Source: Escherichia coli
GTDB lineage: Bacteria; Pseudomonadota; Gammaproteobacteria; Enterobacterales; Enterobacteriaceae
DNA: 64,000 bases
Direction: 5' to 3' (one strand)
NCBI RefSeq assembly: GCF_041886205.1
Contig: NZ_CP169029.1
In this document: positions 63,487-63,722 of the stretch, piece by piece
How positions within the stretch are numbered: position 1 is the first letter of the stretch
How the letters are laid out: every line of letters starts with the position of its first letter
The notes under the pieces: model-generated
Database searches by the model: none
The model's input: only the letters and a program-made list of their open reading frames with translations
What the model was told of the DNA's origin: nothing
Translations under genes and position numbers: made by a program

Positions 63487-63509
63487 GAATGAGAATGATT
63501 ATTATTGTC
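63487..63509 (+). promoter_or_regulatory. Fur box overlapping ryhB promoter
   Basis: gaatgagaatgattattattgtc, AT-rich Fur-box-like repeats immediately upstream of ryhB +1. Confidence 0.5.
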
Positions 63510-63511
63510 TC

Positions 63512-63602
63512 GCGATCAGGAAGACCCTCGCGGAGAACCTGAAAGCACGACATTGCTCACATTGCTTCCAGTATTACTTAGCCAGCCGGGTGCTGGCTTT
63601 TT
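63512..63602 (+). ncRNA. ryhB: small regulatory RNA RyhB (Fur-repressed, iron sparing)
   Basis: gcgatcaggaagaccctcgcggagaacctgaaagcacgacattgctcacattgcttccagtattacttagccagccgggtgctggctttt recognised as RyhB, ending in hairpin plus T-run terminator. Confidence 0.92.
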
Positions 63603-63722
63603 TTTTGATCTTTCGTTCTCAATTTATCCACGGGAGTGCTTGTGTTCGTTATGCGCACTCCAGTAGGAACCACGTCCGCTTTGCGCTAAGGTGTAAATAA
63701 CCACCTTAATAAGGACGAAATC

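Follow-up and report, generated by a model that had tools for sequence, protein, structure and literature searches.

The 64,000-nucleotide stretch of Escherichia coli DNA analysed here, referred to below as the window, carries the gene for the small regulatory RNA RyhB near its right-hand end. The ryhB gene (63512..63606, plus strand; 95 nt per the K-12 annotation) lies in an intergenic region of 333 bp. It is flanked on the left by the divergent gene yhhY, encoding an N-acetyltransferase (62902..63390, minus strand), and on the right by the 5′ part of yhhX, encoding an oxidoreductase, which runs off the window (63723..64000, plus strand). The boundaries of both neighbors follow the RefSeq annotation, taken for yhhY from the 100%-identical strain LHM10-1. 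RefSeq yhhY is 162 amino acids long and starts with an ATG at 63390; the mechanically called yhhY frame (62902-63468, minus strand, 188 aa, TTG start) is too long and reaches into the intergenic region. The gene order yhhY-ryhB-yhhX is the same as in K-12, and the RNA gene occupies the orthologous position between yhhY and yhhX that characterizes RyhB.

Beyond yhhY, the window and K-12 differ. K-12 carries a yhhZ-yrhA::IS1E-yrhD-yrhB block of ∼3.5 kb at this site, while in the window ggt and yhhY are separated by a gap of ∼60 bp (62841-62902). The block is missing from both the window and LHM10-1, and looks like a strain-variable island beside ryhB.

The preliminary description of this locus had named the RNA as its real feature, and had proposed an Rfam scan and an alignment to K-12 ryhB as ways to check this. 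Both bear it out. Scanning the whole window against Rfam gives four matches that exceed their gathering thresholds, among them RyhB (RF00057) at 63541-63605 on the plus strand, which covers the full model (positions 1-67 of 67) with 83.1 bits (E = 3.6e-14), compared to a gathering score of 55 bits. When window positions 63400-63730 are aligned with K-12 MG1655, a single mismatch is seen at 63710 (T in the window, A in K-12), upstream of yhhX, and 63400-63709 match K-12 base for base. Because this only mismatch lies outside the RNA, K-12 ryhB (b4451; 3580922-3581016, minus strand, 95 nt, between yhhX and yhhY) maps exactly to 63512-63606 on the plus strand, with 100% identity. The promoter, Fur box, terminator and yhhY/yhhX flanks are likewise those of b4451, and there is no difference inside the gene. 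The stretch from 63380 to 63730 is present at ≥95% identity in 5424 of 5426 complete E. coli genomes, and strain LHM10-1 is among those with 100% identity. The median number of RyhB copies per E. coli genome is one, and the copy in the window is the syntenic, canonical copy.

Taken as a gene identification, it is virtually certain that 63512-63606 on the plus strand is the E. coli ryhB gene, encoding the RyhB small regulatory RNA of the Fur-repressed type, and nothing substantive speaks against this identity. The locus is the canonical, well-studied and already-known ryhB, here in a non-K-12 strain of E. coli. The interval originally proposed for the RNA, 63487-63606, is right at its end, which is the last T of the terminator run and agrees with the K-12 annotation, but not at its start, as the RNA starts at 63512 and the 25 nt from 63487 to 63511 belong to the promoter and Fur box. 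The true 3′ end of RyhB is probably variable within the T-run at 63598-63606.

The gene is preceded by a sigma-70 promoter (63476..63505, plus strand), made up of a -35 element TGGACA (63476-63481), an 18-nt spacer and a -10 element TATTAT (63500-63505). Ten of its 12 positions match, and it is the sole promoter-like site in 63300-63800. The start-site G at 63512, which is the annotated 5′ end, lies 7 nt past the -10 element. An alignment of 18 enterobacterial orthologs shows the promoter block, GACAAGTGCGAATGA.AATGATTATTATTG, to be nearly invariant. A cluster of Fur boxes (63485..63509) covers the -10 element. The Fur consensus GATAATGATAATCATTATC has one match in the 64-kb window, where 0.01 would be expected by chance, and this best 19-mer (63491-63509) agrees with the consensus at 16 of 19 positions, with 3 mismatches. 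A second, overlapping copy shifted by 6 bp (63485-63503) agrees at 14 of 19 positions by manual count on the sequence, which fits a cluster of Fur sites. A Fur box had been anticipated just upstream of the RNA interval; the box is present, but it overlaps the -10 element within 63487-63606 and does not lie upstream of it. A 25.2-bit Fur cluster centered at -15 of ryhB has been predicted, and a gel shift with the K-12 DNA, which has the same sequence as the window, confirmed that Fur binds (Chen et al., 2007; PMC2189734). The gene therefore has the Fur box over its promoter that marks a RyhB sRNA, and is predicted to be repressed in an iron-responsive manner.

At its 3′ end, the gene has an intrinsic terminator that doubles as a putative Hfq-binding module (63580..63606, plus strand). 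It consists of a 7-bp stem, AGCCAGC/GCTGGCT (63580-63598), with a 5-nt loop, and of nine consecutive T's at 63598-63606; the first T is itself paired in the stem. Five of the seven stem pairs are G-C. In more distant homologs the stem is kept by compensatory variants, seen as GCCAGC/GCTGGC, GCCCGC/GCGGGC, GCCGGC/GCCGGC, GCCCAC/GTGGGC and GCCAAC/GTTGGC. A rho-independent terminator with a long U tail, as found here, is expected of RyhB and would serve as the site of Hfq binding.

For comparison within the RNA, we aligned 19 orthologs of the syntenic type, from Escherichia, Citrobacter, Enterobacter, Klebsiella, Lelliottia, Pseudescherichia, Superficieibacter and others. The RyhB core, the 21-mer CATTGCTCACATTGCTTCCAG (63551..63571, plus strand), is invariant in all 19. 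An exact-match search with this 21-mer, using one genome per species, finds it in at least 120 DNA stretches from species of Enterobacterales, Vibrionales and Aeromonadales. The seed, GACAUUGCU (63549..63557, plus strand; RyhB nt 38-46), is a perfect complement of positions -4 to +5 of the sodB mRNA. In K-12 sodB, which lies outside the window, these positions read AGCAAUGUC and span the AUG, and all 9 nt are complementary to RyhB nt 38-46. A whole-molecule RNAduplex calculation of RyhB against the sodB 5′ region gave -35 kcal/mol and was dropped as evidence, with 71 of 500 shuffles as good. Because the whole-molecule duplex is no better than shuffles, only the local 9-nt seed match to sodB counts.

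The seed/core is altered in one E. coli strain, 23AR0151 (NZ_CP195448.1), which carries a 9-nt tandem duplication, ACATTGCTC, at ∼63551. This gives the strain three copies of the ACATTGCT(C/T) repeat compared to two in the window, and the duplication may represent either natural variation in the seed or an error of assembly.

The single-sequence fold of 63512-63606 has a minimum free energy of -24.1 kcal/mol and is not more stable than shuffles (z = -0.67). We would expect such an unremarkable stability for an sRNA whose seed needs to stay unpaired, and it is not evidence against an sRNA. RNAalifold applied to the 19 orthologs predicts a 5′ stem, UCAGG/CCUGA, together with the terminator. Covariation is absent from these 19 orthologs, in which every predicted pair is invariant or changed on one side only; two-sided changes are lacking because the pairs are invariant at such divergence.

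The same 19 orthologs show conservation of the promoter/Fur-box block, of the core and of the terminator. Within the RNA they differ by indels of 1, 2 and 4 nt, such as an extra T in TATTACTT-TAGCC. The sequence 3′ of the T-run is unalignable, even between E. coli and Escherichia albertii. The conserved promoter, Fur box, core and terminator, the indels inside the gene and the divergent 3′ sequence fit an RNA gene and not a coding sequence, and this pattern suggests that selection at the locus acts on the RNA and not on the 95-codon open reading frame that crosses it.

Second copies of RyhB-type RNAs occur in other Enterobacterales, such as Salmonella RyhB-2/IsrE/RfrB and Yersinia RyhB1/RyhB2. 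They share the 21-nt core and the terminator hairpin with the ryhB gene of the window, but differ in their 5′ parts (e.g., ...GAATAGTTGAGC...GGTATTCAGTACGA), have stems of the GCCCGC/GCCCAC type and lie in other genomic contexts. Many of the scanned genera, including Yersinia, Photorhabdus, Enterobacter, Pantoea and Lelliottia, have two core-containing loci per genome. In Salinivibrio sharmensis, two copies of the RyhB core lie in tandem ∼300 bp apart on one contig (11702-11722 and 12008-12028 of stretch L070), each with its own Fur-box-like upstream block, ATAATGAGAATGGTTAT. PrrF1 and PrrF2 of Pseudomonas are functional analogues, Fur-repressed sRNAs that lower the levels of iron-protein mRNAs such as sodB, but they have no real sequence or structure relationship to the window ryhB. 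A permissive Rfam rescan of 63300-64000 added to RyhB only a sub-threshold match to PrrF (RF00444), which scores 21.3 bits (E = 0.37) where the gathering score is 90, and PrrF membership was rejected.

Elsewhere in the window, the Rfam scan found two full-length AgrB matches (RF02891) on the minus strand, at 4675-4758 (103.3 bits) and 4909-4992 (106.2 bits), which are presumably the antisense sRNAs agrA and agrB, arranged in tandem at the dinQ toxin locus of the E. coli arsR-gor region. A match to the sRNA ES036 (CssrF) at 13770-13810, also on the minus strand, is marginal, with 42.0 bits against a gathering score of 37.6 and three non-canonical pairs in the outer stem.

Whether the RyhB transcript is also translated is the subject of an existing proposal. 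In work on EHEC, Neuhaus et al. (2017) proposed that ryhB also codes for a nonapeptide, RyhP, from an ATT start with a weak GGAGAA Shine-Dalgarno sequence (PMC5331693). In the window, the claimed ORF occupies 63552..63581 (plus strand) in the third frame, is read as MAHIASSIT, and ends at a TAG stop. RyhB would then have a dual function, acting by base-pairing and through translation into RyhP, and would resemble the SgrS/SgrT type of sRNA in having a short ORF inside the RNA. The published ORF sequence is unchanged in the window, and according to the same study ribosome footprints fall on ryhB, and RyhP expressed from a plasmid affects competitive growth relative to stop-codon controls (PMC5331693). 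That phenotype, however, was obtained by overexpression from a high-copy plasmid (PMC5331693). The start codon is non-canonical and the Shine-Dalgarno sequence weak, whereas SgrT has a canonical start. Furthermore, the RyhP ORF lies within the seed region, where the nucleotides are conserved for pairing anyway, and across the 19 orthologs it is the nucleotides of this region that are conserved and not the nine-codon frame. Only three of the 19 keep the RyhP stop; the other 16 have lost it because of an insertion before the TAG (1 nt in 15, 4 nt in one). Besides E. coli and E. albertii, only a single ortholog keeps the nine-codon frame, and there the peptide also differs.

These comparative data argue against a conserved RyhP peptide and would be compatible with a lineage-specific one. 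We consider it improbable that RyhB is a dual-function RNA of this kind, and slightly more doubtful still that its transcript is translated via RyhP into a peptide restricted to Escherichia. If RyhP were real, the label "non-coding" would be incomplete for RyhB, although the 95-codon ORF would still not be rescued, and the dual function would be an already published proposal and not a new one.

With RyhB as the product of the locus, the longer open reading frames that cross it require another explanation. The preliminary description had pointed to a 95-codon ORF (63413..63700, plus strand) that reads through RyhB and its terminator, and had called it spurious. The frame exists as described, as a mechanical call with an ATG start and 95 amino acids, and it failed every test applied to it, which covered protein families, a protein collection, the frames of relatives and indels within E. 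coli. Two observations would favor a real small-protein gene that overlaps or replaces the RNA gene, namely the open frame with its ATG and the Cys-rich predicted product, for which Pfam returns faint matches of zinc-finger-like type (E = 0.27-0.43; 11 bits, where the cut-off is 27). We attribute these matches, the best of which reaches E = 0.27 and 11.5 bits against 27, to the Cys-rich composition. The predicted product has no Pfam match above the cut-off and no NCBIfam family. An exact look-up of the 95-aa sequence and of both alternative-start versions in a collection of ∼15 billion predicted proteins returned none of them, although the same DNA is present in K-12 and in thousands of sequenced E. 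coli.

The frame is also unstable among close relatives. In E. albertii, the AAA TGC of E. coli reads AAA TAG, which puts a stop at codon 11, and within E. coli, 1-nt indels produce versions of 64, 71 and 84 aa whose C-termini differ. Among five divergent E. coli strains inspected for frame stability, 1-nt insertions are seen near 63634 in four and in the upstream T-run in one, and the terminator run of one strain has eight T's in place of the nine in the window. The 63634 insertion together with an in-frame duplication of 9 nt in the core yields an 87-aa version. Four of the five strains have an unaltered RNA sequence from 63512 to 63597. Other genera have 1-, 2- and 4-nt indels in the frame, the last ∼31 codons are unalignable, and the stop-to-stop length of the frame ranges from 38 to 121 codons among orthologs.

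Expression of the 95-codon ORF would face further obstacles. The ryhB start site is preceded by the first 33 codons of the ORF, which take in the ryhB promoter, at codons 22-31, and the Fur box. A transcript covering the ORF would have to begin upstream of 63413, where no promoter-like site was found, and would need to continue past a strong intrinsic terminator at codons 56-65. The ORF lacks a coding signature. It is a chance open frame in the 333-bp intergenic region and codes for nothing, and the probability that it is a real gene is negligible.

Equally negligible is the chance that a second mechanical ORF, of 53 codons with a TTG start in another frame (63505..63666, plus strand), is a real coding feature: the exact 53-aa protein is carried as a "hypothetical protein" by four GenBank accessions from E. 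coli and Shigella sonnei (EIQ50412.1, OJZ38162.1, OKO60411.1 and OOH61248.1), but it is called in no sampled RefSeq/PGAP genome, has no NCBIfam family, passes through the ryhB terminator, and has a frame whose stop-to-stop length spans 14 to 92 codons across the 19 orthologs. Its TTG falls within the -10/Fur box and precedes the transcription start by 7 nt, which places the start codon outside the RyhB transcript. The cluster of this protein at 90% identity further contains a 310-aa JGI "peptide/nickel transport permease", which looks like a clustering artefact, and short "partial hypothetical proteins" assigned to Pseudomonas syringae and Staphylococcus chromogenes. The latter come from contigs of 417-449 bp that look like contamination with E. 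coli DNA.

For ryhB as a Fur-repressed regulatory RNA, a mechanism can be laid out along the features described above. The sigma-70 promoter, with its -10 element under the Fur box, would drive transcription of ryhB. When iron is plentiful, Fe2+-Fur would occupy the promoter and block transcription, and when iron is scarce, an RNA of ∼90-95 nt would be made that ends at its own intrinsic terminator. Together with Hfq, the single-stranded core of RyhB would pair with mRNAs for non-essential iron proteins at their translation-initiation regions; in the classic target, sodB, RyhB nt 38-46 would pair across the AUG. Pairing would block translation and lead to decay by RNase E, and iron would be spared. 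The repression of RyhB by Fur in vivo, its dependence on Hfq, the decay mediated by RNase E and the target regulon are established. Hfq binds the AU-rich stretch and the U tail of RyhB, the seed targets the translation-initiation regions of sodB, sdhCDAB, acnB, ftnA and other mRNAs, and RNase E degrades both RyhB and its target. For the identical K-12 gene, Masse and Gottesman reportedly saw in 2002 a RyhB transcript of ∼90 nt on iron limitation or in a fur mutant, as well as dependence on Hfq. This work, along with that of Masse et al. in 2003 and 2005 and of Geissmann and Touati in 2004, forms the literature basis of the RyhB mechanism.

Public records treat the locus unevenly. It had been suggested that a protein-only annotation would mislabel it, and this holds in part: the sampled RefSeq genomes call no CDS here, while a few older GenBank records do carry a false protein, although it is the 53-aa ORF in the other frame and not the 95-codon one. 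Among 40 listed RefSeq matches from E. coli, none has a CDS or an ncRNA between yhhY and yhhX, and when the query was limited to the span of the intergenic ORF, all 25 listed RefSeq matches were annotated "none". In the records examined, the sampled PGAP genomes omit both the false CDS and the true ncRNA, and ryhB appears only in the curated K-12 record. The ryhB ncRNA was thus systematically missing from the routine PGAP annotation of complete E. coli genomes in these records. The significance of the locus is accordingly one of annotation only, as RyhB ranks among the best-characterized bacterial sRNAs and finding it in an E. coli window adds no biology, and the lesson is that ORF tracks running across intergenic sRNA genes are not to be trusted.
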